Positions 1,001-41,858 of a stretch of DNA of 44,187 bases are shown here, one piece after another. The stretch is from a virus, in the IMG/VR virus record IMGVR_UViG_3300038758_000056; one strand, given 5' to 3'. Position numbers and translations under genes: made by a program. The notes below the pieces were generated by a model, which did not search any database, had not been told where the DNA came from, and saw only the letters and a list, made by a program, of their open reading frames with translations. Numbering within the stretch: position 1 is the first letter of the stretch; each line of letters begins with the position of its first letter.

Positions 1001-1270
1001 TTATTCCAATAAGCTCAACAAATACATAGTATCAGTTTGCTTGACCTCAATCTGGTTGCTTACGTAGTCAAATGCATGGGCAGCGGAGCATCTATTCTGA
1101 TTGAATCGCTTTGACGTAACCCTAAACGGTTCGCCCGTCTTTTTGCGTATCAGGTACATAGCTACGTGCCTAGCACATACCGCGTCTCTTTTTCTATCTC
1201 CGCTTTTCATTCGGCCTATTGGAACTCCAGAAGCGTCTGATACTGCTTGTGTTATCTGGTCGGGGGTCAT
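1001..1270 (-). CDS. DnaA C-terminal (domain IV)-like DNA-binding protein
   Basis: SGDRKRDAVCARHVAMYLIRKKTGEPFRVTSKRFNQNRCSAAHAFDYV follows the DnaA domain IV pattern (R.R..V..R..AMYL.R..T....I...F......V.HA). Confidence 0.55.
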   Translation of the reverse strand: MTPDQITQAVSDASGVPIGRMKSGDRKRDAVCARHVAMYLIRKKTGEPFRVTSKRFNQNRCSAAHAFDYVSNQIEVKQTDTMYLLSLLE

Positions 1271-3447
1271 TAGAATAGAGTTAAAACAGAATCACGTTCT
1301 TGAACTGCGGATCTATGGTTAGCTTCATTCAATTTAAAGTAACTCTCTTTCAGCTCGATACTGATTGACTTCCTATTCATCTTCAATGCTTGAAAACCCT
1401 CTGAACCTATGCCTCCAAATGGGCTGAAAACCGTCTCACCCTCATTTGAATATAAGTGAATGATTCTTTCTATCGTATCAAGCTGTAAAGGACAGATGTG
1501 CTTCTCATCATTACCGTCCCTACCAGACCTGTATTGAAGCGTTCTGGAGTAATCAATATCCATCCAAACTGGACTAGCATACTTCTGCCAAAGATCAACA
1601 GGTAAATAGTTGGGTTCGTTTGGGTCTGTGTCTTGGTGTGTTATAGGGGTTTCGTTTTCTCCTTCATTCCTAAAAAACAGAATGTAATCAGGTATACCCA
1701 CTCGCGACATTGCGCTATCCTTTTTAATAGTCTTATGCAGCAATCCTAGTGCCTTTGTTCGCTGCATTTCCGTAACCGGATTCTTCCATACTGTAGTCTT
1801 TGCGTGGTAAATAAACCCTTGATCAGAAAACCAATCAATCAACATTCCGCTAAAATCTCTTAGCCCGATAAATCCCTCTTTTCCTTTTTGTATTGGTAAG
1901 TCCATACAATGAACTGCGCAAATACGCCCCGACTTTAGGACTCGTTTCAATTCTGGAATCAGGTATTTGAAGTGCTGCTCAAATTCCTTGTAGTTTCTTA
2001 CATTACCCATGTCAGCCTCCTTATCTGAATACACATAAAGCTCAGCAAAGGGCGGGCTAAAAACAACCAGATCAGCGGAGTTGTCTTCTAGTTTTTTGGA
2101 TTCCGTAACGCAGTCCCCGTTTATAATTTTGTAGTCGTTGGTGTTCATTTCCTTGTTTATTACTTTGAAGTTTGATTTTAGTGTTTTGTAGTCAGCATTA
2201 GCGGAGTATTGGCTCATTTCATGAATCATTGTTTTATGCTTCAACTCCTTATTGAGAATGGTCTTTCTAACATTCACCTGACTCTCAGGTATGAGGATAT
2301 GGACATTGACCTTATTGGTTTGACCGAACCGATAGCACCTTCTTACAGCCTGGTAGAACGCCTCAAACTTGAAATCGTAAGACATAAATACCATATTGTG
2401 GCATTGCTGGTAATTCATGCCAAATGATGCAATTGATGTTTTCGTGACCAACACTCGAAAGTCTTTATTAGCAAACCCATTTAAATGTTTAGCCTTGTAT
2501 TCTGGGGAATCAGACCCTTGCACGTTTACAGAATCATTCAGAACCTTTGCGAGCGCATCCGTTTCCGCGTTCTTTAACCCCCACACGATCCACTGTTCGT
2601 CATTTGAATTAACCAACTCAACTGTCTTATCAACCCTTTTGTCAAACGATCTATTCAAATCCTTGTGTAGGTCGGTGGCTGAAACCGCAACATCTCCGAA
2701 TAAGGTCATTGTGTTGTTTTCAACCGGAATGACATGTTCAATGTATTCAATCTGTGGTAGATCATACCCGCACATTTCAAAGCCAAGTGTTGCGGGATTG
2801 TCTAGTGAAATAGACCACGTACATACGTACTTCCAAAAGTCGTCAGTTGCATGCTTTCTTAATCTCCATTTAGATGTTTCGCCACCATCATGCACAAAGT
2901 ACATTGCGAGCATTTCAAGATAGCTCATTGCTCCTAAAAACTCTGAGTGTTGGCCTAGCTCCATGTGGTCATTAGGGCTTGGCGTTGCAGTACAAGCTAA
3001 CTTGTATGGGGTGTCCTTGAATGTTTCGATTATCAACGAAGATAACTTACCGTCTCGCCCTTTTAAGATTGAACTTTCATCTAACACAACACCAGAATAT
3101 AATCTAGTATCCGTGTTTTTTAGTTGGTCGTAATTCGTAATATCAAAGCTATCTGTATTGATGCCGAATTGGACGGCCTCTTTTTTAGTCTGTTCCACAA
3201 CTGCCAGAGGTGCAAGTATCAGAACTTTTGCGCCCGTGTGATTGAATACAGCCTCCGCCCAAGCTAACTGCTGAATGGTCTTTCCTAATCCACAATCCTC
3301 AAATATTGCAAATCGCCCCTTCTGTAAAGCTATCTCAACGATATGCTTTTGAAATGGGAATAGGTTTTTATTTAGTAAATCGGGCTTGAATCCAGAAGAT
3401 ATAAACCCCTTCTTTTTGGTTTGCAGGAATTGTTCGTAGTCGTTCAT
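1270..3447 (-). CDS. SNF2-family helicase fused to a beta-class N4/N6 DNA methyltransferase
   Basis: Helicase motifs GLGKT, VLDESS, TATPSPN, QAVRRCYRFGQ in the N-terminal 2/3. C-terminal methylase motif IV (VVFSPPF) precedes motif I (FSPFGGIGSEG). Confidence 0.85.
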   Translation of the reverse strand: MNDYEQFLQTKKKGFISSGFKPDLLNKNLFPFQKHIVEIALQKGRFAIFEDCGLGKTIQQLAWAEAVFNHTGAKVLILAPLAVVEQTKKEAVQFGINTDSFDITNYDQLKNTDTRLYSGVVLDESSILKGRDGKLSSLIIETFKDTPYKLACTATPSPNDHMELGQHSEFLGAMSYLEMLAMYFVHDGGETSKWRLRKHATDDFWKYVCTWSISLDNPATLGFEMCGYDLPQIEYIEHVIPVENNTMTLFGDVAVSATDLHKDLNRSFDKRVDKTVELVNSNDEQWIVWGLKNAETDALAKVLNDSVNVQGSDSPEYKAKHLNGFANKDFRVLVTKTSIASFGMNYQQCHNMVFMSYDFKFEAFYQAVRRCYRFGQTNKVNVHILIPESQVNVRKTILNKELKHKTMIHEMSQYSANADYKTLKSNFKVINKEMNTNDYKIINGDCVTESKKLEDNSADLVVFSPPFAELYVYSDKEADMGNVRNYKEFEQHFKYLIPELKRVLKSGRICAVHCMDLPIQKGKEGFIGLRDFSGMLIDWFSDQGFIYHAKTTVWKNPVTEMQRTKALGLLHKTIKKDSAMSRVGIPDYILFFRNEGENETPITHQDTDPNEPNYLPVDLWQKYASPVWMDIDYSRTLQYRSGRDGNDEKHICPLQLDTIERIIHLYSNEGETVFSPFGGIGSEGFQALKMNRKSISIELKESYFKLNEANHRSAVQERDSVLTLF

Positions 3448-12924: not shown

Positions 12925-15120
12925 ATGGCTGACGAAGTAATTGCTAAATATAAGGCAGACCTAAAAGACTATAATTCCCAAATAGACAAGGGAACGAAGC
13001 AAGCTCAGAAAGACTTTGACAAGGTCGATGAGTCTGCGTCTGGTCTTAATAAGACTATGGGTAAGTTGGGCGCGGCTGTTGCGGCTGCGTTTGCAGTTGA
13101 TAGGATTGTGGCGTTTACTGCTGAGGCTTCTAAGTTAGCTGCTGAGGGTGAGGGTGTGAGAAGGGCGTTTGAGCGAATAGGCGACCCTAAATTACTACAA
13201 GGATTAAGAGACGCAACGAGAGGGACGGTATCCGACCTTGAGTTGATGAAGAGCGCGGTAAGGGCTTCTAACTTTAAGATACCACTTCAAGACCTTGCTA
13301 AGTTATTTGAGTTCGCAAGACGTAGAGCGAAGGAGACGGGGGAGGAGGTTGACTACCTAGTTAACTCTATCGTGCTTGGTATTGGCCGTAAGTCTCCGCT
13401 AATACTTGACAACCTTGGAATATCAGCGGTCGAGCTTAGAAAGAAGCTAAAGGGCGTTGGTGTTGAAGCTGCTAGTGTTGGCGACATCTCTAAGATTATT
13501 GGAGAGATAGCAACCGAGGAAATGCGTAAAATGGGTAATGAGGTTGTTACAACCAAAGACCGCATGGATCAGCTGGCCGCATCGACAGCCAACTTCAAAG
13601 AGAAATTCGGTGCTATCATAAACGAGAACATAGTTCTAACCGCCTTTGACCAGTTAGAGAAGTTCAATAGTGAGGTGCAAGAGACCAATGATGTGCTAGC
13701 TAAGTTAGCTGAAAGGTATGATGGTTTCGATGGGTTCACGACTGTAGTAACAAACGTTGTTAACGGCCTATTAGAGCCGTTCAAGGTGGCTAATAGAATC
13801 ACTAAGGAGTTCGCTGATAATATTGATGCGGCAACCTTGAAGCTAGATGAGTTTAGAATGATCTCGGATATGCTCTCAAGAGGGCGCATTGATGAGATAC
13901 AGAAATTTCTAAAGTTGAGCGATGAAGCTCAGGAAATGCAAATCAGGAGGTATGGTAGAGAGGCCGAGGCGTTAGATATAACAGAGGATGCATTAAGAAT
14001 GCAAGAGCGTCTAAGAAAGGAGATGCAGAAGCAATTCGAGGTTAAGAAGGCCGCGCAAGTAATACAGGCCAACACAATTAAGAACGCTGCTTATTGGGCT
14101 AAGATCGTCAAAGACCTACAGGCAGAGCAGATGGCGCAAAACACTACGTTAGAGCGTCAAGCTGCTATCATTCCTGAGTTGTCTCACGCAATGTCTGAGT
14201 TGAACAGGTTACTAGGTAAGGCTGCGAAGTCATCTAAAGCATTTAACGACACGTTAGATAAAGAGGATAAGCATAACGTAGAAGGCATGACGGGCGCGGT
14301 TTACGGGCTTGCAGACGCTTTGAAGGAGGCTAATAAAGGGTTTGACGCTGCCGCTGCTGTAGCGTCTGAAAATCAGAAGCAAATGGATGCGGCTGATGAA
14401 CAGATAAGGATTGACAACAAGGTAACAGCGCAACGCAAACAGAACTTCCTTACATACGTAGATGCGGCTAGTAGTGCTTTCGGTCAGGTTGCGGCTATTG
14501 CAATGGAGCAGACCAGGCAGCAAGTAGAGTTTGAACAGAACCTATTGAATCAGAAGTTTCAGCAAGGGCTACTAACTGAGGAAGAGTTCACTAGACAATC
14601 AGGTGAATTAAAGAGAAAGCAAGCGCAACAGGCTAAAGATCTTCGTTTGTTTGAAACCATAATCAACACAGCATCGGGTATTGTATCAGCATTAGCACAG
14701 ACACCACCTAACGTGCCGCAATCTATCGCCACGGGCGTTGCGGGTGCTTTACAGGCTGGTTTGATAGCTAGTCAGCCAATACCACAATTTGCAAGGGGGA
14801 CGCTAGATGCGCCCGCTGGATTTAAGATAGTGGGAGAGGAAGGGCCAGAGCTTATCTATGATGGTGGGGGCTATCCTGTTATTACCCATGAAGAATCAAT
14901 GAAGATTCTGGAAAAGTATCACATTCCAACGGTTGATATTGGTAGAATAGAATCAGGCGGCTTTGAGGGAATGGCTGAATCTGCGAAGCTGAATGGTTTT
15001 AATGATATGAACCTATTGCAAGCCACCGATAGGCTTAGACAGTCTAACAAGCAAGGGTTTGTCTACATGGCCGACCGTATATCAGAATCACTAAAGAAGT
15101 CTAGTAGAAATGAGTGGTAA
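12925..15120 (+). CDS. Tail tape measure protein
   Basis: 731 aa, long Ala/Gln/Glu-rich helical protein, in the canonical position after the chaperone. Confidence 0.85.
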   Translation: MADEVIAKYKADLKDYNSQIDKGTKQAQKDFDKVDESASGLNKTMGKLGAAVAAAFAVDRIVAFTAEASKLAAEGEGVRRAFERIGDPKLLQGLRDATRGTVSDLELMKSAVRASNFKIPLQDLAKLFEFARRRAKETGEEVDYLVNSIVLGIGRKSPLILDNLGISAVELRKKLKGVGVEAASVGDISKIIGEIATEEMRKMGNEVVTTKDRMDQLAASTANFKEKFGAIINENIVLTAFDQLEKFNSEVQETNDVLAKLAERYDGFDGFTTVVTNVVNGLLEPFKVANRITKEFADNIDAATLKLDEFRMISDMLSRGRIDEIQKFLKLSDEAQEMQIRRYGREAEALDITEDALRMQERLRKEMQKQFEVKKAAQVIQANTIKNAAYWAKIVKDLQAEQMAQNTTLERQAAIIPELSHAMSELNRLLGKAAKSSKAFNDTLDKEDKHNVEGMTGAVYGLADALKEANKGFDAAAAVASENQKQMDAADEQIRIDNKVTAQRKQNFLTYVDAASSAFGQVAAIAMEQTRQQVEFEQNLLNQKFQQGLLTEEEFTRQSGELKRKQAQQAKDLRLFETIINTASGIVSALAQTPPNVPQSIATGVAGALQAGLIASQPIPQFARGTLDAPAGFKIVGEEGPELIYDGGGYPVITHEESMKILEKYHIPTVDIGRIESGGFEGMAESAKLNGFNDMNLLQATDRLRQSNKQGFVYMADRISESLKKSSRNEW

Positions 15121-17038
15121 TGCCATACGTTTTTATTTAGACGGCACTCAGTACGACAGCCCTGATGGCTGGATGGAAACATCTACAGAAGTGTCTGTTG
15201 ACCACAACAGTCAAATTATAGCTATAGACTACACTCAGGAATACACGTGGCATGGGGGCGCGTTCACGTATCTATACAACAAGGCTTTGTCGGGCGCGTG
15301 TGAGTTGGTGGATGTGCTGATTGAGATTGAAAGCGATGGGCTACATGAATTGAATGGGGTTATTTTTTTACCATCAATCGTGTTTAACGAAACTGAGAGA
15401 AGCTGCACATGCAAGGTCGAGGACGATGCTTTTAGCGCAAGGATTCAAAACAACAAGTCAACAGAGATAGACTTAGGCTCTGAAACATCAAAGAACGGGG
15501 TCGCCATAAGCACCGTTAGGCATGAGGTGTCTGTGTTCAAGCCTTCTGATGGCACTTACTACACAGACGAAGCTACAGGGTTCAAAGTTTACTGGGCGTT
15601 CTCTAAGTTGGTTCATTGGATGTCTGACTTCAAAGTTGGGTTTAAGTCTGACTACTTCAACACGGGTGACGGCTCTAACGCTTGGATAACATCCGCTCCT
15701 AACTTAAGAGGCAGGGCAAACGCGGAAGACCCTACTTGTTCATTTAAGCAGCTTTACGACACGTTCAGAGCGTTGCGTAATATCGCTATGGGCTTTGAAA
15801 GGATAAACGGCGCACCTTACGTTGTGATTGAGCATATCAGTTATTTTAGAGCCTCATCCAATGCGGTTATCATAAGCGATGCGCACGAGACAGAGCTTAG
15901 TTTTATTCAAGACTTGCTGTATTCAAGGGTTGAAGTAGGCGGTGAGATTCTAAGAGACTTCCAATGCGACTCAGGAAACACAGCATGCGATGCTTCTAAT
16001 AACATATTGAACTATGGCTTTGAGCGTGAGGTTTACCCGATAACCGGAGAGTGTAATAGAGACCAGAGATTAGACCTATCAATAGACTCTAAGTTTATTG
16101 TTGACACCAACAAGATACAAGAGGTTGTAGAGTTTGAAAGCGAAGCGTACGATGACAAGGTTTTCATAATAGAAACAGACACAACCCTCACCACTTTTGC
16201 AGATAAAAGCGACCCGTTGAACCTTGATGAGAATTGGTATAACGAAGCCTACACGAATCGAAAGGTTATTGAGAGGTATCAAGACTACCTAACGGGTTCT
16301 TTGACGGCTTACGGGGTTAACAATGGCGTTCACCAATTCCAAGCTGAGAAGGTTGGTGGTATACTAATAAACGTGGTTCAAGCTCCTGCGTGGACTAATA
16401 ATGGAATTGTATTTGACGATGAGACAACCCCGCCTAACTTTGACCAAGACGGAGCTTATGATAATGTGACGGGTGAATACACACCAGGAGACGAGGGAGC
16501 ATATAAGTTTCAGTTTACAGGAATCTGGCAGTCAATAACACCTCCAACGGTTGCGGGTAACATTATCACATTCAGAATACAAATAGACCACTACGATTCA
16601 GGCGGGACACTTCTAACAACATACAACGGCACACAGTATAGTCAAACCACAAATTTCGGGGCAACTGCGATAACTCACGACACTGATTACATCAGTATGG
16701 ATGAGAACGACTATTTAAAAGTAAGATTAGAAACACAGCAGAGTTTACCAGTTGGAACACACCCCGCGCAAGTTCAATTCGATGACTTTACATGGTTGAC
16801 AACTGACGTTAGGGCTGTTCAAATAGTGGGGCAAACCAACACGGGAAACCTTCGCGCCCCGCTAAAGACATCTACTAATTTTCCATTATCAATAGAGGAA
16901 GGTGTAGCATATTTGAACGACACGAAGAAAACGCTGAGGATTCAAAACCAGAACATAGATAGAAGTGGATGGGTTCACAGATTCAAGCAGAACCTTTACA
17001 CGGGTGAATCAGAAATTGAAATGATAAGCAATGGCTAA
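15110..17038 (+). CDS. Tail or baseplate protein (distal tail protein position)
   Basis: Large ORF overlapping the tape measure stop. Assigned by position only. Confidence 0.45.
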   Translation: MSGNAIRFYLDGTQYDSPDGWMETSTEVSVDHNSQIIAIDYTQEYTWHGGAFTYLYNKALSGACELVDVLIEIESDGLHELNGVIFLPSIVFNETERSCTCKVEDDAFSARIQNNKSTEIDLGSETSKNGVAISTVRHEVSVFKPSDGTYYTDEATGFKVYWAFSKLVHWMSDFKVGFKSDYFNTGDGSNAWITSAPNLRGRANAEDPTCSFKQLYDTFRALRNIAMGFERINGAPYVVIEHISYFRASSNAVIISDAHETELSFIQDLLYSRVEVGGEILRDFQCDSGNTACDASNNILNYGFEREVYPITGECNRDQRLDLSIDSKFIVDTNKIQEVVEFESEAYDDKVFIIETDTTLTTFADKSDPLNLDENWYNEAYTNRKVIERYQDYLTGSLTAYGVNNGVHQFQAEKVGGILINVVQAPAWTNNGIVFDDETTPPNFDQDGAYDNVTGEYTPGDEGAYKFQFTGIWQSITPPTVAGNIITFRIQIDHYDSGGTLLTTYNGTQYSQTTNFGATAITHDTDYISMDENDYLKVRLETQQSLPVGTHPAQVQFDDFTWLTTDVRAVQIVGQTNTGNLRAPLKTSTNFPLSIEEGVAYLNDTKKTLRIQNQNIDRSGWVHRFKQNLYTGESEIEMISNG

Positions 17039-24519: not shown

Positions 24520-24584
24520 CGTTTGCTACAACTGCCGCTAAATTCCATGCTACGCACGTCTATTTAGCGAGGTGTTGGCGGTAA

Positions 24585-24950
24585 TTACTCCACCAACTTA
24601 GCTATGTAAGTATTTTTATCTTTCCAGCCATCAGCATACTTTTTAGCGTCATCAAGTGTTTCAAACTTGTTGCTAAGTTGTATCATGCCTTCAACCCCTT
24701 CGTCTGAACCGTCTTCAAAAACAATGTAACTACCGCCAACAATGGGTATAGCACATATTTTTACTACTTCATCGAGAAAACTATCAAAGTCTTCTTCCAA
24801 AAGGGCGTTGGTGTGTTTGCTTGTTCCGCTTGGATAAGTGCTTTTTACTTTATCCCAAAGTGCTAGTTTCAATTTATCTTTCATGTTATTTAATTTTAGT
24901 GTTTCAATTCCGTAAAAATACGATGCCATACCCGAAGCCGTTATATGCAA
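24585..24950 (-). CDS. Hypothetical protein (true start probably the ATG at 24884 or 24929)
   Basis: The ORF-track start is a TTG lying inside the conserved intergenic element. Internal Mets give MKDKLKLALWDK... Confidence 0.55.
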   Translation of the reverse strand: MHITASGMASYFYGIETLKLNNMKDKLKLALWDKVKSTYPSGTSKHTNALLEEDFDSFLDEVVKICAIPIVGGSYIVFEDGSDEGVEGMIQLSNKFETLDDAKKYADGWKDKNTYIAKLVE

Positions 24951-24953
24951 TGG

Positions 24954-25502
24954 CTACCATCCGTCCATCACATAGGTGATTTTACAATCACCCACAAAGC
25001 CTTTTTGGTAGTGTAAACATCCAACGGGGAAGCCAAATCCAAATCCGTGTTTACTGCCTCCGCCCATATACACTATCTCTTTTAACCCACCGTATTCAAG
25101 CACCATCTTTTGTACTTTGTTGCTTTTAAAGGCTTTGGCTATCGGCACAAAGAACACAACATTGTCAGCAATAGAAAATGCCTTTTGAAGAAAGTGGTCA
25201 TAAATACTGTAAGGTGGGTTTGTAATTATCCAATCTACTTTCTTATCCCAATCAAAGAAGTCAAGTCCTTCGTCAATTTCACATCTGTATTTATTCTCGC
25301 TTTCAAATAAATCGTAAAAGGCATTTTCCCCAGCAGCAGGTTCTAAAATTGAGCCTTGTGGTTTAAAGTAATCTACAATCCATTTTGCTGTTGTGTTTTT
25401 AGTAAACACTCTGTCAGCAGCAGTAGCCGTCTTTGTCTTATTCGGCTTTGTTGGTGTTCCATTTCTTGTCATAATTTCATTTTTAATTAACCGCCACAGC
25501 AT
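24954..25502 (-). CDS. N6-adenine DNA methyltransferase, gamma-like class (start probably the ATG at 25472)
   Basis: Motif I ILEPAAGENAF and motif IV IITNPPYS. Confidence 0.8.
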   Translation of the reverse strand: MLWRLIKNEIMTRNGTPTKPNKTKTATAADRVFTKNTTAKWIVDYFKPQGSILEPAAGENAFYDLFESENKYRCEIDEGLDFFDWDKKVDWIITNPPYSIYDHFLQKAFSIADNVVFFVPIAKAFKSNKVQKMVLEYGGLKEIVYMGGGSKHGFGFGFPVGCLHYQKGFVGDCKITYVMDGW

Positions 25503-25569
25503 ATAACACAGAGTATAAATAACCCTACGGGTCGCTATCGCTTATTCATACCCACGTCCGTTATGCCCC
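25499..25569. repeat. Palindromic intergenic unit U2 (YAAC - L arm - loop - L arm - GTTR)
   Basis: GCATATAAC aca GAGTATAAATAA [19 nt] TTATTCATACCC acgtcc GTTATGCCCC. L arms complementary at 10/12; AAC pairs with GTT. Confidence 0.8.
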
Positions 25570-25571
25570 AT

Positions 25572-26114
25572 TTAAGAAAGCACCTCGAAAACGAATTTGC
25601 TTGGTAATAATTGACTGCATAAATAAATGCTTTTGAATGTAGCACCTTTTTTAATTACACCGTCTTTTATATAGTTAATTCGCTTATCAAAAACCATTAT
25701 TTCAAAAGGATTGTTTTTTAGCATTTCATACCTTTTCTTAGTATCAAATAATCCACTTTCATTTATCAATAAAGCAAATGGTTTGCCTATCAAAAATAAC
25801 CTATCTAAAATCGGTGTTCTTAAACTATATGGTGGGTTGCTAATAATGTAATCGTAATTTTGTGGCTCATATTCAAAAAAGTTTTTACCGTCTTCAATGT
25901 GTCCGTAAATTACAGTATTCCCATTTTCTCGGAGCAACTTTACAAAATTACTTTCTTCTTTATCAAATGGACACCATACAGTTTTATCACTTGGGATGTA
26001 TTTCAATAATGGCTTTATAGCATATTCAAGCGTATAAAATTCGTCTGATTTATTTATTTTGTCTTGTGCAAATTCGTGATTCATAAAATAAAGAATAAAA
26101 ACGGGGCATAACAC
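25572..26114 (-). CDS. EcoRI-methylase-like adenine DNA methyltransferase (start probably the ATG at 26084)
   Basis: SDEFYTLEYAIKPLLKYIP..KTVWCPFDKEESNFVKLL...YDYIISNPPYSLRTPILDRL matches the EcoRI_methylase-type family. Confidence 0.7.
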   Translation of the reverse strand: MLCPVFILYFMNHEFAQDKINKSDEFYTLEYAIKPLLKYIPSDKTVWCPFDKEESNFVKLLRENGNTVIYGHIEDGKNFFEYEPQNYDYIISNPPYSLRTPILDRLFLIGKPFALLINESGLFDTKKRYEMLKNNPFEIMVFDKRINYIKDGVIKKGATFKSIYLCSQLLPSKFVFEVLS

Positions 26115-26237
26115 ACGGTATAAAAAATTGGGGCGTGTGTAGTTTCCCGAAGGTTAATACTATTATTTATCATTGTGGCGGTGCGAAAGTTTATCTCTTT
26201 TAATCCCCAACTTTTCATACCGCAAAACGTTAGCTGC
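26103..26237. repeat. Palindromic intergenic unit U5
   Basis: GGGGCATAAC aca CGGTATAAAAAA [84 nt] TTTTCATACCG caaaac GTTAGCTGC. L arms complementary at 10/11. Confidence 0.75.
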
Positions 26238-26448
26238 AAGCGAGTGGTCGCCAAGCAATACATTCAGCAAAAGGCATATCGTCATCGTAAAATTCGCAAA
26301 CACTACCGTCATCAAATAGCATTTCAAAGTTTTCGCCCGTAGGCATTTCAATTAGGTTCACTTCGTTTTGCTCACCTTTGATAAATCGCCAGCAGCTAAC
26401 ATCCGCTACAGTGCATGGCTGTTGGTTGTTTTCTGATACTGTACTCAT
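26230..26448 (-). CDS. Small acidic hypothetical protein
   Basis: ORF rich in Asp/Glu (EFYDDDMPFAE). Confidence 0.55.
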   Translation of the reverse strand: MSTVSENNQQPCTVADVSCWRFIKGEQNEVNLIEMPTGENFEMLFDDGSVCEFYDDDMPFAECIAWRPLACS

Positions 26449-26545: not shown

Positions 26546-26565
26546 ATGGTATATAAGCAAAAAAC

Positions 26566-26808
26566 TTAACTACCATTCTCCTTTTCATTAAGGTACTCGA
26601 AATAAGAAAGGGCAGCCGTGAATGAACACCAACCTATTTTCTTACCAATACCCTCCCAAACTGCTTTACAATAAGTCATATCATTTCCATACTCATTATC
26701 GTTCCACCTTTTTAATTCTGCTTCTATGGTCGGGATATGCCCTTGTGCTTCCAAACCAAATACTACTTTAAGCCCTTTCTTTTCGACTTCTTCAAATAAT
26801 TCTTTCAT
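26566..26808 (-). CDS. Hypothetical protein
   Basis: ORF in the accessory island. Confidence 0.6.
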   Translation of the reverse strand: MKELFEEVEKKGLKVVFGLEAQGHIPTIEAELKRWNDNEYGNDMTYCKAVWEGIGKKIGWCSFTAALSYFEYLNEKENGS

Positions 26809-26864
26809 AATTTATCCGTTAAGTTTTCTACTCATATACCTGTCTGTTGGTAGTAATAGTTTTG

Positions 26865-27126: not shown

Positions 27127-27153
27127 CCTTATACAAACCGTTACCCACAATAC
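27127..27153. repeat. Half unit (L arm CCTTATACAAA - cc - GTTACCCACAATAC) 3' of gene 27164..27691
   Basis: Carries the left arm of the 13/14 inverted repeat whose partner is at 27725..27738. Confidence 0.7.
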
Positions 27154-27163
27154 TACGTGAGTG

Positions 27164-27691
27164 CTACCAATTGAATTTTTCAGCGTTTAAGTAAACTTGT
27201 GTGTGTATTCTTCTTTGATTGACATTTATAGTGGTTGGGTGTATGAACTTCTTTGGTATTACACGAATAAAACACCTCCAAGTATGTTCATTACTCATAA
27301 TACCTCTATGTAAATCATTTTGAGTGAACGTATGCCATTTCTGTTCTTCTTTAAAGTAGTTGTTTCCCTCCTTATCTTTGTATTCTGTTAGCGGAGGGCC
27401 ACTTAACCACATATACATTTTCTCGCCTGTTATACCTCTAAAATCTCTTTTCAAGTTTTCATCTCTTGGTACAAAATCTCTGTGCCAATTTGGAATACAA
27501 GGGAATTGCTTCGGCATAAGCATATGTATTTTTACATCAACTGCATATTCCTCTTTAGGTAATTCAAGTAGTCCAGATTCCAACAACTCGTTTATTATAG
27601 GTTCTACTTCGGGCATTAATTCTATTGTCTTTTCAAACGAGCAAAGCATAACTCCATTTGTACTTTTACTCCAATCAATATTATGTTTCAT
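27164..27691 (-). CDS. Hypothetical protein with HxD...H motifs (possible Fe(II)/2-oxoglutarate dioxygenase or cupin-like fold)
   Basis: NWHRDFVP ... NDLHRG ... WRCFIRV could form a facial triad plus Arg. No confident family match by eye. Confidence 0.3.
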   Translation of the reverse strand: MKHNIDWSKSTNGVMLCSFEKTIELMPEVEPIINELLESGLLELPKEEYAVDVKIHMLMPKQFPCIPNWHRDFVPRDENLKRDFRGITGEKMYMWLSGPPLTEYKDKEGNNYFKEEQKWHTFTQNDLHRGIMSNEHTWRCFIRVIPKKFIHPTTINVNQRRIHTQVYLNAEKFNW

Positions 27692-27724
27692 TATCTGTTT
27701 TTTTAAATTTTATACTAAAAACCC

Positions 27725-27769
27725 GTACTGTGGGTAACACTAAATATACCCCATATTCCGTTGCACTAC
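27725..27769. repeat. Short palindromic unit U1
   Basis: GTACTGTGGGTAAC acta AATAT accccc... ATATT cc GTTGCACTAC. AAC pairs with GTT, and the AATAT/ATATT arms pair. Confidence 0.6.
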
Positions 27770-27821
27770 ATACGGTGCATATTCTCAACGTTGTGTCTTG
27801 CTTAGTTTCGCGCAATATACT

Positions 27822-27829
27822 TAAATTTG
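27822..27829 (+). promoter_or_regulatory. -7 box TAAATTTG placed 4 nt before the ATG of 27834
   Basis: Perfect TAnnTTTG; head of the packaging/head operon. Confidence 0.5.
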
Positions 27830-27833
27830 CAAT

Positions 27834-28736
27834 ATGGCAAAAAAGCAAAGAGGGATTTTACTTTTAGCGTTCGGAGCTAAAGGTTACGCAGAGTTGGCGG
27901 CTAATCTAGCTTACTCACTCAAAAGACATTCAAATGTTCATATTACTTTAGCGGTTCAACCCGACTTGATGGACTACATTTTCGCAGAGGATTACCAATA
28001 CTTCGACAATATCATCGACCTCAAAGAAGATGACTACATGAAGGATGGAAAGGTAGACCCAGCACGTGCTAAAGTTCGTATCTATGACATAGGCTCAAAG
28101 CTATACAAGGAGTTCATCTATTTAGACGTTGACGCGCTTTGCTGGCATGACATCGAAGGGCTATTCACTCAATGTTCTGAAAGTGAGAAGTATTACATCA
28201 CAGACGTTAAGGGAGTTGGCAGTCAGGACGAGGTGGTTAATTACTCAATCTGGGCTAAGAATGAGGACATTACGGAGTTCTTCGGATTGAAAAAGAAAGA
28301 CAAGATAGTAGCGATTCAATCGAGTTGGTGCTACTTCAAGACGTGTCCAGATACTAAGAAGTTCGCAACCGAGGTTAAGAAATACTATAACAAGGGCTTC
28401 GACCTATTGAAACTGCAAGAAAAGTGGGGCGGTACGTTACCTGATGAGCTTATCTTCTCAGGTGTGCTTTCTAAGATGGGTTTAGACGCTTCTCACGAGT
28501 TCTACCCTGCTCCTATACACTTTGGCAACCATCACCCTAAAAAGGGCATGACAGAGCTTGCGGAGGATTCTTACCTATTGAGTGTTTACGGGAATGGCAA
28601 CGGCCAAACGCTTACCAAAGTCGCCTATTTAGAGTATTACGACAGGGTGTTGATTCAATGGAAAAAGGAACACGGTCAGAATCACAAGTACAAGATAGGT
28701 CAAGCGAACAAGGATAAACACGCTAATAAGCATTGA
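27834..28736 (+). CDS. GT8-like nucleotide-sugar glycosyltransferase
   Basis: GILLLAFGAKGYAELAANLAYSLKRHS ... KEFIYLDVDALCWHDIEGLF (DxD), as in family 8 enzymes. Confidence 0.45.
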   Translation: MAKKQRGILLLAFGAKGYAELAANLAYSLKRHSNVHITLAVQPDLMDYIFAEDYQYFDNIIDLKEDDYMKDGKVDPARAKVRIYDIGSKLYKEFIYLDVDALCWHDIEGLFTQCSESEKYYITDVKGVGSQDEVVNYSIWAKNEDITEFFGLKKKDKIVAIQSSWCYFKTCPDTKKFATEVKKYYNKGFDLLKLQEKWGGTLPDELIFSGVLSKMGLDASHEFYPAPIHFGNHHPKKGMTELAEDSYLLSVYGNGNGQTLTKVAYLEYYDRVLIQWKKEHGQNHKYKIGQANKDKHANKH

Positions 28737-38385: not shown

Positions 38386-38596
38386 ATATGTAATAGTGAA
38401 TAAAAAAGACCTGACAGGTAAAGAAAATTGGGATCAGGTAGGAGATGTAACGGATGTTCGTGAAAGTCTAAAGGGGGACAAATGTCTGTTTAAATTCGAC
38501 AAACTTCCAAAAGACCTACCAAAGTCGGCTGAGTGTGTTGAGGATATAATAGACTTTTTAAATAGTAGTGAATGGACTAAAACAGAAGTACCATGA
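38375..38596 (+). CDS. Hypothetical protein
   Basis: ORF overlapping both neighbours. Confidence 0.55.
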   Translation: MSRKYVIVNKKDLTGKENWDQVGDVTDVRESLKGDKCLFKFDKLPKDLPKSAECVEDIIDFLNSSEWTKTEVP

Positions 38597-38973
38597 TAAC
38601 TAAAATACTATTTCTGATACGAGCGTTATTTAATCCCGACCTAACCTTTGGGCTTATGCTCATCCATGAAATAGACAGCCAAGGCCAAGTAATTGCAGAT
38701 GTAAAGACAGACCGGATTATTTACGCAAACAAAGCATTTCTTAAGCACATAGGGCGTAGCATTAAAGAGATGAGGAGTAAGCCGTTCATTGACTTTGTAT
38801 CTGACCAATACAAAGGGAAAACAATGAAAGCGTCTGACGATCTTGTACACGGTATGACTGTGTATGATTTCGAGAACGCATACCAACGACCAGACGGGTC
38901 TGACGCTTATTTAAAGTGGAGGGCGATTGTGTTTGGGGGGTTGTATGCGTGCAATGTTGAGCTAATTAAATGA
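38593..38973 (+). CDS. Stand-alone PAS-domain protein
   Basis: RIIYANKAFLKHIGRSIKEMRSKPFIDFVS...FENAYQRPDGSDAYLKW follows the PAS fold pattern (i.y.N.af....G.s..e..g......, f..r..r.DGs..w..). Confidence 0.55.
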   Translation: MITKILFLIRALFNPDLTFGLMLIHEIDSQGQVIADVKTDRIIYANKAFLKHIGRSIKEMRSKPFIDFVSDQYKGKTMKASDDLVHGMTVYDFENAYQRPDGSDAYLKWRAIVFGGLYACNVELIK

Positions 38974-39682: not shown

Positions 39683-39729
39683 GGTGTCTGCTTCGGGTTT
39701 CCCTCAACCCGCGCAGCCCCGCTAAAGGC

Positions 39730-39759
39730 CGTTGCGATCATTAAAACGGATCGCTAACG
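39730..39759. repeat. Closed GTT...AAC hairpin: CGTTGCGATC - 9 nt - GATCGC(t)AACG
   Basis: 10-bp stem with one bulge, in the convergent intergenic region. Confidence 0.65.
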
Positions 39760-39765
39760 TTCCAT

Positions 39766-39795
39766 AAAAGGCATGGCGAAAAGCCACGTCCTTTT
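39766..39795. terminator. Bidirectional intrinsic terminator between convergent units
   Basis: AAAAGGCATGGC - gaaaa - GCCACGTCCTTTT. A-run on one side and T-run on the other. Confidence 0.65.
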
Positions 39796-39816
39796 ATCGA
39801 GACGTTGTGCGCAATA

Positions 39817-40065
39817 TTACCTACTACGCATATCTACACAAGCAATAATAGCGGTTTTAGTATGGTAAACATAAATTTGCCACTCACTATTACCCGTGTT
39901 GCTTTCTTTAACCCAAAGAACACCATGATACCAACCTTCTTTCTTTTCTGCCATATATCTCTCTTCAAATTCTATGGCTTTCTGTAATGCTTCGGTTCTT
40001 AAAAAACCGCTATTAGCGTCTGCTTTTATAATTATTTTTTTCATATAAAAATAAATACTGCGCAC
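39817..40065 (-). CDS. Hypothetical protein (start probably the ATG at 40044)
   Basis: The ORF-track start is a GTG lying inside the inverted-repeat arm. MKKIIIKADANSG... from the ATG. Confidence 0.55.
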   Translation of the reverse strand: MRSIYFYMKKIIIKADANSGFLRTEALQKAIEFEERYMAEKKEGWYHGVLWVKESNTGNSEWQIYVYHTKTAIIACVDMRSR

Positions 40066-40195
40066 AACATTGTATATAAATCAGTGGCGTTGTACGTCTT
40101 TTTAACCACTTTTAGCTGTTTAATTTAGTTTAAGCGTGTCGGCAATCTTACAGCTATTAATCGCCACCGCTTCATATACTTAACCGTTAGCGGTA
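40054..40195. repeat. Palindromic intergenic unit U4
   Basis: AATACTGCGCACAAC att GTATATAAA [90 nt] TTCATATAC ttaacc GTTAGCGG. L arms complementary at 8/9. Confidence 0.7.
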
Positions 40196-40405
40196 ATTCT
40201 CCCAATCAATACCATACTTCTCACAAATTTCAATTGCATCTCTACCAATTATTCCAACTGTTGAGCCAGCATAATCTTTTCCCCAACGTTGAGCAGCAAC
40301 TACTATTACCCTTTCAATTTTTAAGGGCAAAGAACTACCGCTAACATCGGCTATAAAATCATTGCCGTTTTCGTGATTATTCAAAGTTTTTTTCTCTTTA
40401 TTCAT
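40187..40405 (-). CDS. Hypothetical protein
   Basis: ORF in the accessory island. Confidence 0.6.
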   Translation of the reverse strand: MNKEKKTLNNHENGNDFIADVSGSSLPLKIERVIVVAAQRWGKDYAGSTVGIIGRDAIEICEKYGIDWENYR

Positions 40406-40477
40406 GTCGTTTATAATTTAAAAGTTATAGTCTTTTTATCAGCAACGCTTCATAGCCGTATCCCGTTGTGTGTAATG

Positions 40478-40729
40478 CTACGCAAATTCTAATTCGAGCT
40501 TTAATCGTTCTATTTCGGTCTTTGCCTTATCAATGTAGTGGTTCAATGTAGCTATCCTACTTTCAGCCCAAGCAGAATTATCTAAACAATCCTTTGCCCA
40601 ATCATTCATTTTAGAGTGTTTTAGTCGCTTAGAATTATTTCTGCCATTCACTTCTTTTTTCAATTGCCTTAGTTCAGCAATACCTTTTCTAAGCTCTACA
40701 ATCCGTGTTATTTTCTCGTCTTTTGTCAT
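40478..40729 (-). CDS. Hypothetical coiled-coil protein
   Basis: ORF in the accessory island. Confidence 0.6.
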   Translation of the reverse strand: MTKDEKITRIVELRKGIAELRQLKKEVNGRNNSKRLKHSKMNDWAKDCLDNSAWAESRIATLNHYIDKAKTEIERLKLELEFA

Positions 40730-40757
40730 TTCAATTAAGTTTTATAGTTAAAAATCA

Positions 40758-40840
40758 GCACTCCCCACAACACTTTGTATAGTGCATAGCTCGTGCCTCA
40801 CTACGACACCATACAAGATGCCGTTGTACACAAGCACTAC
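40758..40840. repeat. Palindromic intergenic unit U3
   Basis: GCACTCCCCACAAC a CTTTGTATAGTG [22 nt] CACCATACAAG atgcc GTTGTACACAAGCACTAC. L arms pair with one bulge and one mismatch. Confidence 0.7.
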
Positions 40841-40877: not shown

Positions 40878-40892
40878 ATAATTAAATATTTT
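40878..40892. repeat. AT-rich inverted-repeat arm ATAATTAAATATTTT (partner 41661..41675)
   Basis: Perfect 15/15 complement of 41661..41675; overlaps the stop codon of 40882..41655. Confidence 0.8.
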
Positions 40893-41655
40893 CTCCCACC
40901 CGCTCAAAAGGTAATTCTCTTACCAAGTATTCTTCGGGTATTTCCTGTACCTTATCTATTTGCTTAAAAAAGTAAGGAACATTTTGGCTTCTACATTCTA
41001 ATTTCAATCGGTCAGCCCAAAGCAAATCAAACGGTCTTTTTCCGTGTCCGCTTTCACCGCCTTGAATTACCCAGCCAATCCCAGATAAATCAATATTCTT
41101 TATTTCTGCCAATTGTGGTTCTACACTCAAAAACAAATTTCCATTTACCTGTTGAAGGATTGGTACAAGGTTTTCAAATGTCTTTTGGTCAACAGGAGAG
41201 CATCCGAACCAAACGTTTTTTGGTGGGTAATTTTGCCAATCTAAAGGAATTTGTTTGTTGATATTGCTTGGTCTTTTAGTCAAAAAAAGGAAAGTAAGAT
41301 TGTTGTATTTACCATTTGAAATTCTATTGAATAATTCGTTTCTCAAATCTTCGGTAGTTTCAGCCAATAAGTGCTTGTTTGATATTGGTTTTGACTTCTC
41401 GAAAATATCCATCATTGACCCAACAAATACTCTTACATCAATTCCTTTTTCTTCAGCTTCCTTTTGATATTTATTTAAATCATTGAAAGCTGATTTAATT
41501 CTTTTGCGGTCTTTTCCTTCACCCCAAATGTCATTACCCCATCTATGCGATAATGTTTCTGCATAGCAGTTATCACATCCAGCGTGTACTTTAGTACATC
41601 CCCACCAAAGATTAACCGTGTGTTCTGTCCATTCTATTTTACTGTTTTTTGCCAT
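40882..41655 (-). CDS. Phage Gp37/Gp68 family protein (DUF5131)
   Basis: N-terminus SKIEWTEHTVNLWWGCTKVHAGCDNCYAE is the family signature. Confidence 0.85.
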   Translation of the reverse strand: MAKNSKIEWTEHTVNLWWGCTKVHAGCDNCYAETLSHRWGNDIWGEGKDRKRIKSAFNDLNKYQKEAEEKGIDVRVFVGSMMDIFEKSKPISNKHLLAETTEDLRNELFNRISNGKYNNLTFLFLTKRPSNINKQIPLDWQNYPPKNVWFGCSPVDQKTFENLVPILQQVNGNLFLSVEPQLAEIKNIDLSGIGWVIQGGESGHGKRPFDLLWADRLKLECRSQNVPYFFKQIDKVQEIPEEYLVRELPFERVGENI

Positions 41656-41660
41656 CGCTC

Positions 41661-41675
41661 AAAATATTTAATTAT
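41661..41675. repeat. AT-rich inverted-repeat arm AAAATATTTAATTAT (partner 40878..40892)
   Basis: Lies in the 5' leader of 40882..41655. The same leader occurs at 10161..10187. Confidence 0.8.
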
Positions 41676-41738: not shown

Positions 41739-41858
41739 CTACAACACAAACACCTGATAAGCCATGCCACCGGCCAAAGTCCAGCAGAGAAGAATCACAA
41801 CCGTTAGAATCTTCTTAGCCTTGATTCCGTTTGCTCGTGCTTGCCAGTTGGTTTTCAT
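41739..41858 (-). CDS. Small membrane protein, 39 aa
   Basis: Manual translation MKTNWQARANGIKAKKILTVVILLCWTLAGGMAYQVFVL. Confidence 0.4.
   Translation of the reverse strand: MKTNWQARANGIKAKKILTVVILLCWTLAGGMAYQVFVL

Follow-up and report, generated by a model that had tools for sequence, protein, structure and literature searches.

What two distant and mutually complementary sequences do on either side of a single small gene is the question raised by positions 39,804–40,068 of the window, i.e., the whole 44,187-nucleotide stretch of viral DNA (IMG/VR record IMGVR_UViG_3300038758_000056) analyzed here. The gene is a minus-strand ORF of 75 aa (39817–40044) with no Pfam family, and it is enclosed by a 5′ arm (40054–40068, minus strand; sense GTTGTGCGCAGTATT) and a 3′ arm (39804–39818, minus strand; sense AATATTGCGCACAAC), which on the plus strand read AATACTGCGCACAAC and GTTGTGCGCAATATT, respectively. 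The sequences verify the arms described in the initial annotation, including their positions, their complementarity at 14 of 15 positions, and the enclosure of the 75-aa ORF. The lone exception to Watson–Crick pairing, read on the minus (sense) strand, sets a G of the 5′ arm against a T of the 3′ arm. The left arm shares 2 nt with the stop codon (TAA at 39817–39819, plus-strand coordinates), which starts 1 nt ahead of the 3′ arm, and a gap of 9 nt separates the end of the right, or 5′, arm from the ATG (40042–40044). The arm pair is real, lies far beyond chance, and is part of a conserved, recurring architecture.

The upstream flank of each of 76 ORFs was compared with the downstream flank of every other ORF, and a match as good as this pair occurs in 0.09% of the non-cognate pairs (p = 0.0009). 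In the same test, the cognate flank pairs of six minus-strand island genes give p = 0.0002–0.015 against non-cognate pairs. The islands are two low-GC regions at 25–28 kb and 40–42 kb with 35–38% GC versus ~43% elsewhere in the window, and their cargo comprises orphan methyltransferases, DUF5131, and small proteins of no known function. Between the AAC of the previous unit and the GTT of the 5′ arm lies an intergenic element (40069–40185, minus strand) that forms a long hairpin, in which 40162–40179 pairs with 40072–40089; this element, which is tied to the downstream ORF in related loci, is predicted to be the L-type stem and loop of an attC-like site. On the other side, a terminator-like hairpin with a T run (39772–39788, minus strand) is located 16 nt beyond the 3′ arm, where the ORF converges with a plus-strand amidase gene, and any transcript of ORF 39817–40044 should therefore include the 3′ arm. 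A TATATAC box upstream of the GTT was considered as a promoter and rejected, since the box makes up the 3′ half of the hairpin in the intergenic element. The motif AACGG was likewise discarded as a special signal, being common genome-wide on both strands (79 and 57 copies); it shows merely a positional tendency after island stop codons. No Rfam families were found in the window.

Aligned at their GTT and AAC ends, the arm pairs yield a consensus, 5′ GTT-N6-N-G-T-N3 and 3′ N3-A-T-N-N6-AAC, in which positions 1–10 and 12–15 are Watson–Crick pairs and position 11 is a G opposite a T on the sense strand of the ORF. The arms of the 75-aa gene fit GTT-N6-NGT-N3 with the G at position 11 and N3-ATN-N6-AAC with the T at position 11. 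The initial GTT and terminal AAC that were noticed at the outset belong to this consensus, and the tail reported as common to arms of both islands persists in it as a conserved CA(G/A)TA, which includes the invariant G·T. The base preceding GTT is almost always T, and the base following AAC is usually G. A relaxed search of the window (GTT...AAC, at most two mismatches, G·T at position 11) returns nine pairs with the full signature against a mean of 0.33 expected from 30 shuffles. Eight of these pairs are located in the two islands, all on the minus strand, which upholds the proposal of the initial annotation that the bracketing recurs in the second island. When position 11 is left free and pairs 100–1600 nt apart are counted in the window together with all 377 kb of fetched loci, 29 distinct GTT...AAC pairs have positions 4–10 and 12–14 all Watson–Crick, compared with none in five shuffles; 28 of the 29 carry G·T at position 11. 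A table of pair counts drawn from a set selected for pairing is circular with regard to pairing; the weight thus rests on the diversity of N6 and on the unbiased counts, i.e., the 29-pair count and the window search against shuffles.

All the individual units described next are on the minus strand. In the 40–42 kb island, the unit at 40186–40345 bears a perfect signature (GTTAGCGGTAGTTCT / AGAATTACCGCTAAC), with its 5′ arm inside ORF 40187–40405 in the codons V-S-G-S; this pair is absent from the initial annotation. The latter had also described two neighboring genes as keeping degenerate 6-bp versions of the arms. One of these (40465/40766) does mark a partly decayed unit around ORF 40478–40729, although it is really a 15-nt pair spanning 40465–40771 (GTTGTGGGGAGTGCT / AGCATTACACACAAC) with 12 Watson–Crick pairs, the G·T, and two mismatches. 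The other, GTTGTA at 40823 with TACAAC at 41740 around the Gp37/68 gene, is a chance 6-mer, and the real bracket of this Gp37/68 (DUF5131) gene is a perfect AT-rich 15-bp repeat of a different type (40878–40892 / 41661–41675). In the 25–28 kb island, units surround ORF 27164–27691 (27140–27738; GTTACCCACAGTACG / AGTATTGTGGGTAAC), a small N6-adenine methyltransferase-like ORF at 25572–26084 (25560–26112; GTTATGCCCCGTTTT / TAAATGGGGCATAAC), and a methyltransferase-like ORF at 24954–25502 whose start codon lies inside the 5′ arm (24940–25507; GTTATATGCTGTGGC / GCCATTGCATATAAC). Two further units have their 5′ arms inside ORFs, namely 26229–26400 in ORF 26230–26448 (GTTAGCTGCTGGCGA / TCGCTTGCAGCTAAC) and 24574–24740 in ORF 24585–24929 (GTTGGCGGTAGTTAC / GTAATTACCGCCAAC). 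Gene 26566–26808 is framed by a non-GTT bracket of 23 nt (26548–26570 / 26818–26840) with 20 Watson–Crick and three G·U pairs.

Homologues of the 75-aa protein occur almost only on phage-like or metagenome contigs. The bacterial genomes searched yielded one weak match only, in a Lacibacter MAG, and hence no evidence that the cargo originated in chromosomal integrons; exact-peptide searches found no close IMG/VR relatives of the 75-aa gene or of the amidase. The arms are conserved and covary in the homologous loci, a check proposed along with the initial annotation. They are unchanged at 95–97% protein identity (L001–L005 and L015), and the 5′ arm is damaged by a deletion in L007 (95%). At 75% identity, the pair of L013 (GTTATGCGCTGCATT / AATGTTGCGCATAAC) has undergone two compensatory double changes with the G·T retained. 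At 52–57% identity (L017–L021), the arms GTTATAACCAGTGCT / AGCATTGGTTATAAC retain GTT, AGT/ATT, and AAC, and their N6 is wholly different yet matched; L021, within this group, has two extra changes, both to G·T-type pairs. The arms are absent from the more distant L009–L012. Within this one gene family, N6 thus reads GTGCGC in the window and L001, ATGCGC with a second compensatory change in L013, and ATAACC in L017–L021, and the homologues carry at least four different arm pairs. The same behavior extends to unrelated phage contigs, Polaribacter phage P12002L, and Cellulophaga phage phi17:1, which together supply ~40 distinct arm pairs whose N6 varies and always has a matched partner.

The boundaries of similarity between genomes delimit these units at the DNA level. 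In an alignment of five contexts of the cassette with the 75-aa gene, similarity halts exactly at the terminal AAC of the 3′ arm, and on the other side it reaches upstream of the GTT into the intergenic hairpin; L016–L021 show the same pattern at both sides, and homology between contexts breaks off exactly at ...AAC in at least ten junctions. The unit at 40186–40345 has 134 nt in common with phage phi17:1, in a match that opens directly after the AAC of the previous unit, spans the element, the ATG, and 25 codons, and stops at arm position 12. The interiors of the two units are unrelated, the last 12 nt of their 3′ arms are identical, and positions 13–15 covary. From these breaks and matches, it follows that the intergenic element belongs to the downstream ORF and that units abut at AAC. 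A pattern search with the upstream element and 5′ arm of one frame, labeled ‘slot B’, retrieved 20 IMG/VR contigs, in 18 of which the arm pair is identical; the frame encloses ORFs of three unrelated families, and the sequence after AAC varies from contig to contig, even with the same cargo. Additionally, phage PH101 contains two units with common flanks and arms and differing interiors. A single frame can, as judged from these sequences, hold different cargo. The view that the core of the arm is gene-specific does not survive these comparisons, given that the same arms and upstream element enclose three unrelated ORFs and that homologues of the 75-aa gene bear at least four arm pairs. Insertion of genes into the loop of a pre-existing hairpin was also considered and rejected, as the arms travel with the genes and searching for short-range ‘empty’ forms of the signature gave essentially nothing.

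The architecture also occurs in other genomes. The related P12002L, an isolated lytic siphovirus, has the same genome layout as the window, and its brackets surround a methyltransferase gene, a Mom-like gene, and several small genes. On contig L006, nearly all of ~20 small genes have GTTA... on one side and ...TAAC on the other, and hairpins separate the units. The literature search returned no prior account of gene-bracketing arms in phages.

We propose that the low-GC islands of the window are integron-like cassette arrays, in which an attC-like folded site is split by linearization, and we regard this reading as about evenly poised between right and wrong. The arms would represent the two halves of the outer stem of such a site. 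On the sense strand, each unit would consist of [C + intergenic hairpin element + GTT-N6-NGT-N3 + (leader) ORF + N3-ATN-N6-AA], with neighboring units abutting at ...AA|C. In an excised circle, the 3′ arm, the intergenic hairpin, and the 5′ arm would become contiguous, and the sense strand of the junction could fold into a 15–16-bp stem closed by AAC/GTT (R-box-like), followed by an asymmetric unpaired spacer and, beyond it, a second stem (L-box-like) with a loop. Linearization at AA|C upon insertion would then place the outer-stem halves on either side of the ORF, which would be why integron cassettes display the same bracketing. For the unit of the 75-aa gene, the circle junction would read ...GCGCACAA|CGGTTAAG...ACAATGTTGTGCGC..., and marker strings for circle junctions would be, for example, ...TATTGCGCACAA|CGGTTAAGTATATG... 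joined to ...TATATACAATGTTGTGCGCAG.... Formation of the circle, crossover at AA|C, and a role of the G·T in strand choice are inferred, and the recombinase that would act on these sites is not encoded in the window.

When folded as single-stranded DNA, the predicted junctions of three units do form a stem, an asymmetric spacer, a stem, and a loop, with z values of −4.6 for the unit of the 75-aa gene, −4.4 for 40186–40345, and −7.5 for the ‘slot B’ frame of the 20 contigs. In the first of these, the sense strand is predicted to be 7 kcal/mol more stable than its complement because the former carries G·T rather than A·C. In 40186–40345, the codons of the ‘N-terminal leader’ (...NGNDFIADVSGS) coincide with the 3′ half of the inner stem and the 5′ arm, and this role may underlie their conservation at the nucleotide level. 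Several points count against the cassette model. In the integrated state, the hybrid outer stem, made of the previous 3′ arm and the unit’s own 5′ arm, would have only ~3–4 pairs and might be too short to allow excision; the polarity is the reverse of that in canonical integrons; and there is no recombinase in the window. A domain scan of the window ORFs found no site-specific recombinase, tyrosine recombinases included, and the only recombination functions found are ERF and NinG/Rap. Similarly, P12002L has no recombinase annotation.

Pairing on the sense strand and the presence of the stem in the RNA minimum-free-energy (MFE) fold fit an RNA structure too. The main rival is that the arms pair in the transcript as a long-range 5′/3′ helix, which encloses the ORF from its stop codon and would govern stability, RNase III-type processing of a polycistron, or translation. 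Such a role is compatible with the DNA reading, and it would make cassette shuffling an outcome of ordinary recombination filtered by the need for matched arms; on balance, we consider it a serious explanation but an unlikely one. In silico folding, as proposed with the initial annotation, places the end-to-end stem in both the MFE and centroid structures (273 nt, z = −5.7; 511 nt, z = −8.9), in which the predicted helix begins at the stop codon and extends towards the start codon, and the terminator-like hairpin just beyond the 3′ arm implies that both arms can share one transcript. Moreover, 35 of 39 brackets have a long ORF on the G·T strand that terminates at the 3′ arm, and the stop codon is at arm offset −1 or +11, a single frame class, in 26 of 38. 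However, TAAC stop codons occur in integrons as well, about a quarter of the 5′ arms fall inside ORFs, and some brackets contain convergent ORFs (e.g., 14622–15197 in P12002L), such that the 3′ arm is not the end point of any ORF. Pairing is specific to the sense strand of the ORF, where the non-Watson–Crick transitions in significant bracket stems number 31 G·U against one A·C, compared with 535:504 in null segments, and non-GTT brackets also pair through G·U, as at 26548–26570 / 26818–26840 with 20 Watson–Crick and three G·U pairs. This excess was rejected as proof of an RNA function, since it derives mostly from the single conserved position 11 (the remainder being 7:3 within arm positions 4–15) and folded sense-strand DNA explains it equally well. 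Nor was a promoter placed upstream of the 5′ arm by a scan for sigma-70-type sequences, to whose models Bacteroidota promoters do not belong. An RNA role leaves the GTT/AAC termini and the exact breaks of homology at AAC unexplained, and integron cassettes have an identical architecture without the need for one. Given the bracketing signature of integron-type cassettes, which the initial annotation did not recognize, a recombination site at the DNA level has at least the same likelihood as a structure in the transcript.

Other rivals dispense with folding or call for a different enzyme. The arms might be linkers only, i.e., short homology anchors for ERF-type annealing exchange between co-infecting genomes, whose inverted orientation merely avoids deletion by single-strand annealing. 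The ERF and NinG/Rap genes of the window and the coincidence of breakpoints with arm edges agree with this improbable account; however, anchors that flank a module need no mutual complementarity, and the full covariation of N6 over ~40 pairs together with the fixed asymmetry of the G·T favors intrastrand pairing. In addition, 12–15 bp is short for annealing-protein recombination. Modular shuffling of the PeSL type is known in T4-type phages (PMC2839356, PMC4122927) and is in keeping with linkers. A PeSL identity itself was rejected, since PeSLs are direct repeats of one motif, whereas the arms in the window are inverted and differ between units; the corresponding test found no excess of sigma-70-type promoters. 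An invertible segment, of the inverton or phage Mu G-segment type, in which an invertase flips a gene or an alternative C-terminal exon, would account for a segment flanked by inverted repeats, for the convergent ORFs in some brackets, and for 5′ arms located at the junction of a constant N-terminus and a variable C-terminus; across 40186–40345, moreover, an open antisense frame runs to the same NYR stop. Nevertheless, this explanation is very improbable, as no invertase was found in the window, the flipped orientation appears in none of 20 ‘slot B’ contexts and none of seven contexts of the cassette with the 75-aa gene, and a single invertase would not tolerate N6 cores that vary between units. 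Finally, 15-nt inverted repeats hundreds of bases apart are expected somewhere in 44 kb, and the window contains 156 pairs of at least 12 nt. It is nonetheless scarcely credible that the arms reflect a chance match or the terminal inverted repeats of a miniature transposon: the signature is ~27-fold enriched, is confined to the islands in eight of nine pairs, and recurs with covariation in unrelated genomes, and the arm cores vary among copies, unlike transposon ends. A MITE or transposon was also rejected on the ground that no target-site duplication lies beside the arms (flanks gagac / attgt).

A more specific version of the cassette reading attributes to lytic marine Bacteroidota phages, and to a Pseudoalteromonas-phage-like lineage, an integrase-less cassette system of their own, related to integrons in geometry yet distinct. 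Such a system would use the bipartite 15-bp stem with its obligatory G·T as a frame, and signals for expression, at times along with the first ~25 codons, would come from the upstream attC-like element. Either some recombinase or a structure-specific nuclease/annealing pathway would service the system, the stem may in addition serve as an mRNA panhandle, and the whole would form a dedicated shuffling engine for anti-defense genes such as orphan methyltransferases. Taken jointly, these points make a possible but doubtful proposal. More generally, the data suggest that accessory genes are exchanged as discrete cassettes among lytic phages of marine Bacteroidota. If the units are working cassettes, a 44-kb integrase-less lytic phage has no fewer than eight slots in which genes can be exchanged, many uncultured phages employ the same frames again around unrelated genes, and reshuffling of phage accessory and anti-restriction genes has a sequence-defined mechanism. 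If the RNA reading is true, the arms would represent a new systematic end-to-end pairing of mRNAs in organisms without Shine–Dalgarno-led initiation. Any phage genome could be scanned for the consensus, which, with the fixed G·T, has enough specificity for this purpose.

Known RNAs offer a partial parallel. The tac/fbi fold-back of hok-type type I toxin mRNAs and the RNase III-cut long-range stems that flank 16S and 23S rRNA resemble the window in that sequences on either side of a functional RNA or ORF pair into a helix. In contrast to hok-like RNAs, the cargo of the window is mostly not small toxins, and neither of these RNA classes has the conserved GTT/AAC termini or unit boundaries at the DNA level. 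Among phage elements, the PeSL cassettes of T4-type phages, for which mini-circle intermediates have been proposed (Arbiol 2010, PMC2839356; Comeau 2014, PMC4122927), share with the window units the presence of small structured intergenic elements between non-essential genes in hyperplastic regions, where they mark the breakpoints of modular shuffling. However, the motif repeated directly in PeSLs is a promoter–terminator, while each window unit has its own inverted, mutually complementary arm pair.

The closest likeness is to integron gene cassettes. In these, an AAC box, a hairpin, and a GTT box lie between genes, and the sequence after GTT is complementary to that before the next AAC. Three class 1 integron arrays from plasmids, used as a positive control, exhibit GTT.../...AAC bracketing over 8–13 bp, with the stop codon often in TAAC, as for the cassettes of aadA2 (GTTAGACATCAT / ATGATGTCTAAC), aadA5 (GTTAGGCATCA / TGATGCCTAAC), catB3 (GTTAGACGGCAAA / TTTGCCGTCTAAC), arr-3 (GTTATGCA / TGCATAAC), and blaIMP-1 (GTTAGAAA / TTTCTAAC). 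In integron cassettes and phage units alike, the unit’s own upstream GTT... is complementary to its own downstream ...AAC, a relation that the arms of the 75-aa gene also display; a hairpin-forming element separates the AAC box of one unit from the next GTT box; the stop codon often lies inside TAAC; and orphan methyltransferases and small unknown genes are carried in cassettes that are reassorted between genomes. The intergenic elements measure ~75–120 nt; attC is an imperfect palindrome of ~57–141 nt between the AAC and GTT boxes, in which an inner (L) stem, an unpaired spacer, and extrahelical bases occur. There are also differences. The integron core is GTTRRRY / RYYYAAC, whereas GTTGTGC of the 75-aa gene has a Y at the second R, and GTTACCC and GTTATGC of other units also depart from it; some units in other loci, such as that with GTTAGGC in L007, fit. 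The phage arms, at 15 bp, are longer than the 7-bp R box and include the invariant G·T at position 11, which, like the phasing of stop codons, has no known role in integrons. Furthermore, attC lies 3′ of its own ORF with a crossover at G|TT in integrons, whereas the phage element goes with the ORF that follows it and the AAC box marks the boundary on the sense strand; some phage elements additionally carry a start codon and ~25 N-terminal codons, to which the cargo is fused. The hosts of the cassette frames are Bacteroidota phages, unlike those of integron gene cassettes, and the phage arrays have neither integrase nor attI and are thus at most CALIN-type arrays.

This kind of array is partly known from virulent phages, in which Qi et al. 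2023 (PMC9892861) reported integrase-less attC clusters (CALINs), including those of P12002L and PH101; the consensus of the bracket, its polarity, and the repeated use of frames seem to be new to the literature. In that study, attC sites were detected in P12002L, PH101, and TJE1, i.e., phages other than that of the window, and five of six such sites, which are of a type like that described here, were recombined by IntI1. The attC sites of P12002L were reported to run in divergent directions. The cloned attC1 and attC2 of this phage both terminate at an arm (GTTAGGC) of the bracket around the methyltransferase gene, a bracket found here independently of that report. If the window units are working cassettes, the ‘divergent’ attC sites of P12002L are therefore explained as the two arms of one bracket.

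An N-terminal stretch, M..NHENGNDFIADVS or ...ADVS, recurs in unrelated small proteins, where it is joined in frame to C-terminal parts that differ from one protein to the next. It is encoded in the window at 40331-40405 (minus strand) and 26386-26448, at 2270-2335 in the comparison locus L042, and in gp8 of Cellulophaga phage phi17:1 (L024). The codons of this stretch overlie the inner stem and the 5' arm of the attC-like element, i.e., the intergenic hairpin together with its flanking arms; since they coincide with these parts, the stretch may be conserved as nucleic acid and not as protein. Phage phi17:1 also provides the sole megablast match to any deposited phage in the 38.5-42.5 kb region, which covers window positions 40334-40467 (134 nt, 87% identity), starts directly after the AAC that closes one unit (a gene framed by complementary GTT...AAC arms), and stops at position 12 of the 5' arm that follows.

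Some brackets differ from this type or hold more than one open frame. The DUF5131 (Gp37/Gp68) gene at 40882-41655 is framed by a perfect, AT-rich inverted repeat of 15 bp (40878-40892 / 41661-41675), which departs from the GTT...AAC consensus. The ORF at 26566-26808 lies between the arms of a GTATATGA-type repeat of 23 nt (26548-26570 / 26818-26840). The only departures of this repeat from Watson-Crick pairing are three G·T positions, read on the sense strand, and its AAC/GTT are found at the inner and not the outer ends. Two small, convergent and partly overlapping ORFs occupy a single bracket in both Polaribacter phage P12002L (14622-15197) and phage PH101 (10040-10670); the plus-strand ORF of P12002L (14643-14867) lies directly 3' of the 5' arm and is absent from the annotation of the record. 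Within the window, the antisense (plus-strand) frame of unit 40186-40345 is open from arm to arm; since the inverted arm contains the stop codon, this frame and the sense ORF both terminate in an identical ...NYR stop.

A short distance 3' of the 3' arms, small hairpins occur with a conserved (C)GTTTTAAT(G) loop and covarying stems that are frequently based on GTT/AAC. These are found in the window at 39731-39757 (minus strand), at ~4265-4288 in L001 and ~675-700 in L005, two loci carrying homologues of the 75-aa gene 39817-40044, and in attC1 of P12002L as predicted by Qi et al. (2023; PMC9892861). In a predicted RNA fold of 511 nt, 40183-40192 pairs with 39713-39722, joining CCGCUAA directly after the upstream gene to UUAGCGG past the terminator and thereby surrounding the entire unit 39804-40068 and the hairpins 3' of it; this modeled pairing may be due to chance.

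A Bacteroidota host would be consistent with the TAAATTTG box at 27815-27833, located 4 nt upstream of the ATG of the plus-strand gene at 27834, which fits the Bacteroidota -7 promoter motif TAnnTTTG. The nearest matches of the tape measure protein are in Flavobacterium, Porphyromonas, and Polaribacter phages. Elsewhere in the window, a 725-aa protein (1270-3447) fuses SNF2-type helicase domains to an N6/N4 DNA methylase domain; taken with the two small methyltransferase-like cassette genes, it suggests that the phage invests heavily in DNA modification. Among the late/lysis genes, directly upstream of the amidase, is a 126-aa ORF (38593-38973) that matches PAS domains, which is uncommon for a phage.

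In the cassettes of class 1 integrons (plasmid arrays L045-L047), the cassette start is complementary to the start of its own attC over 8-13 bp, which exceeds the 7-bp core usually cited for integrons.
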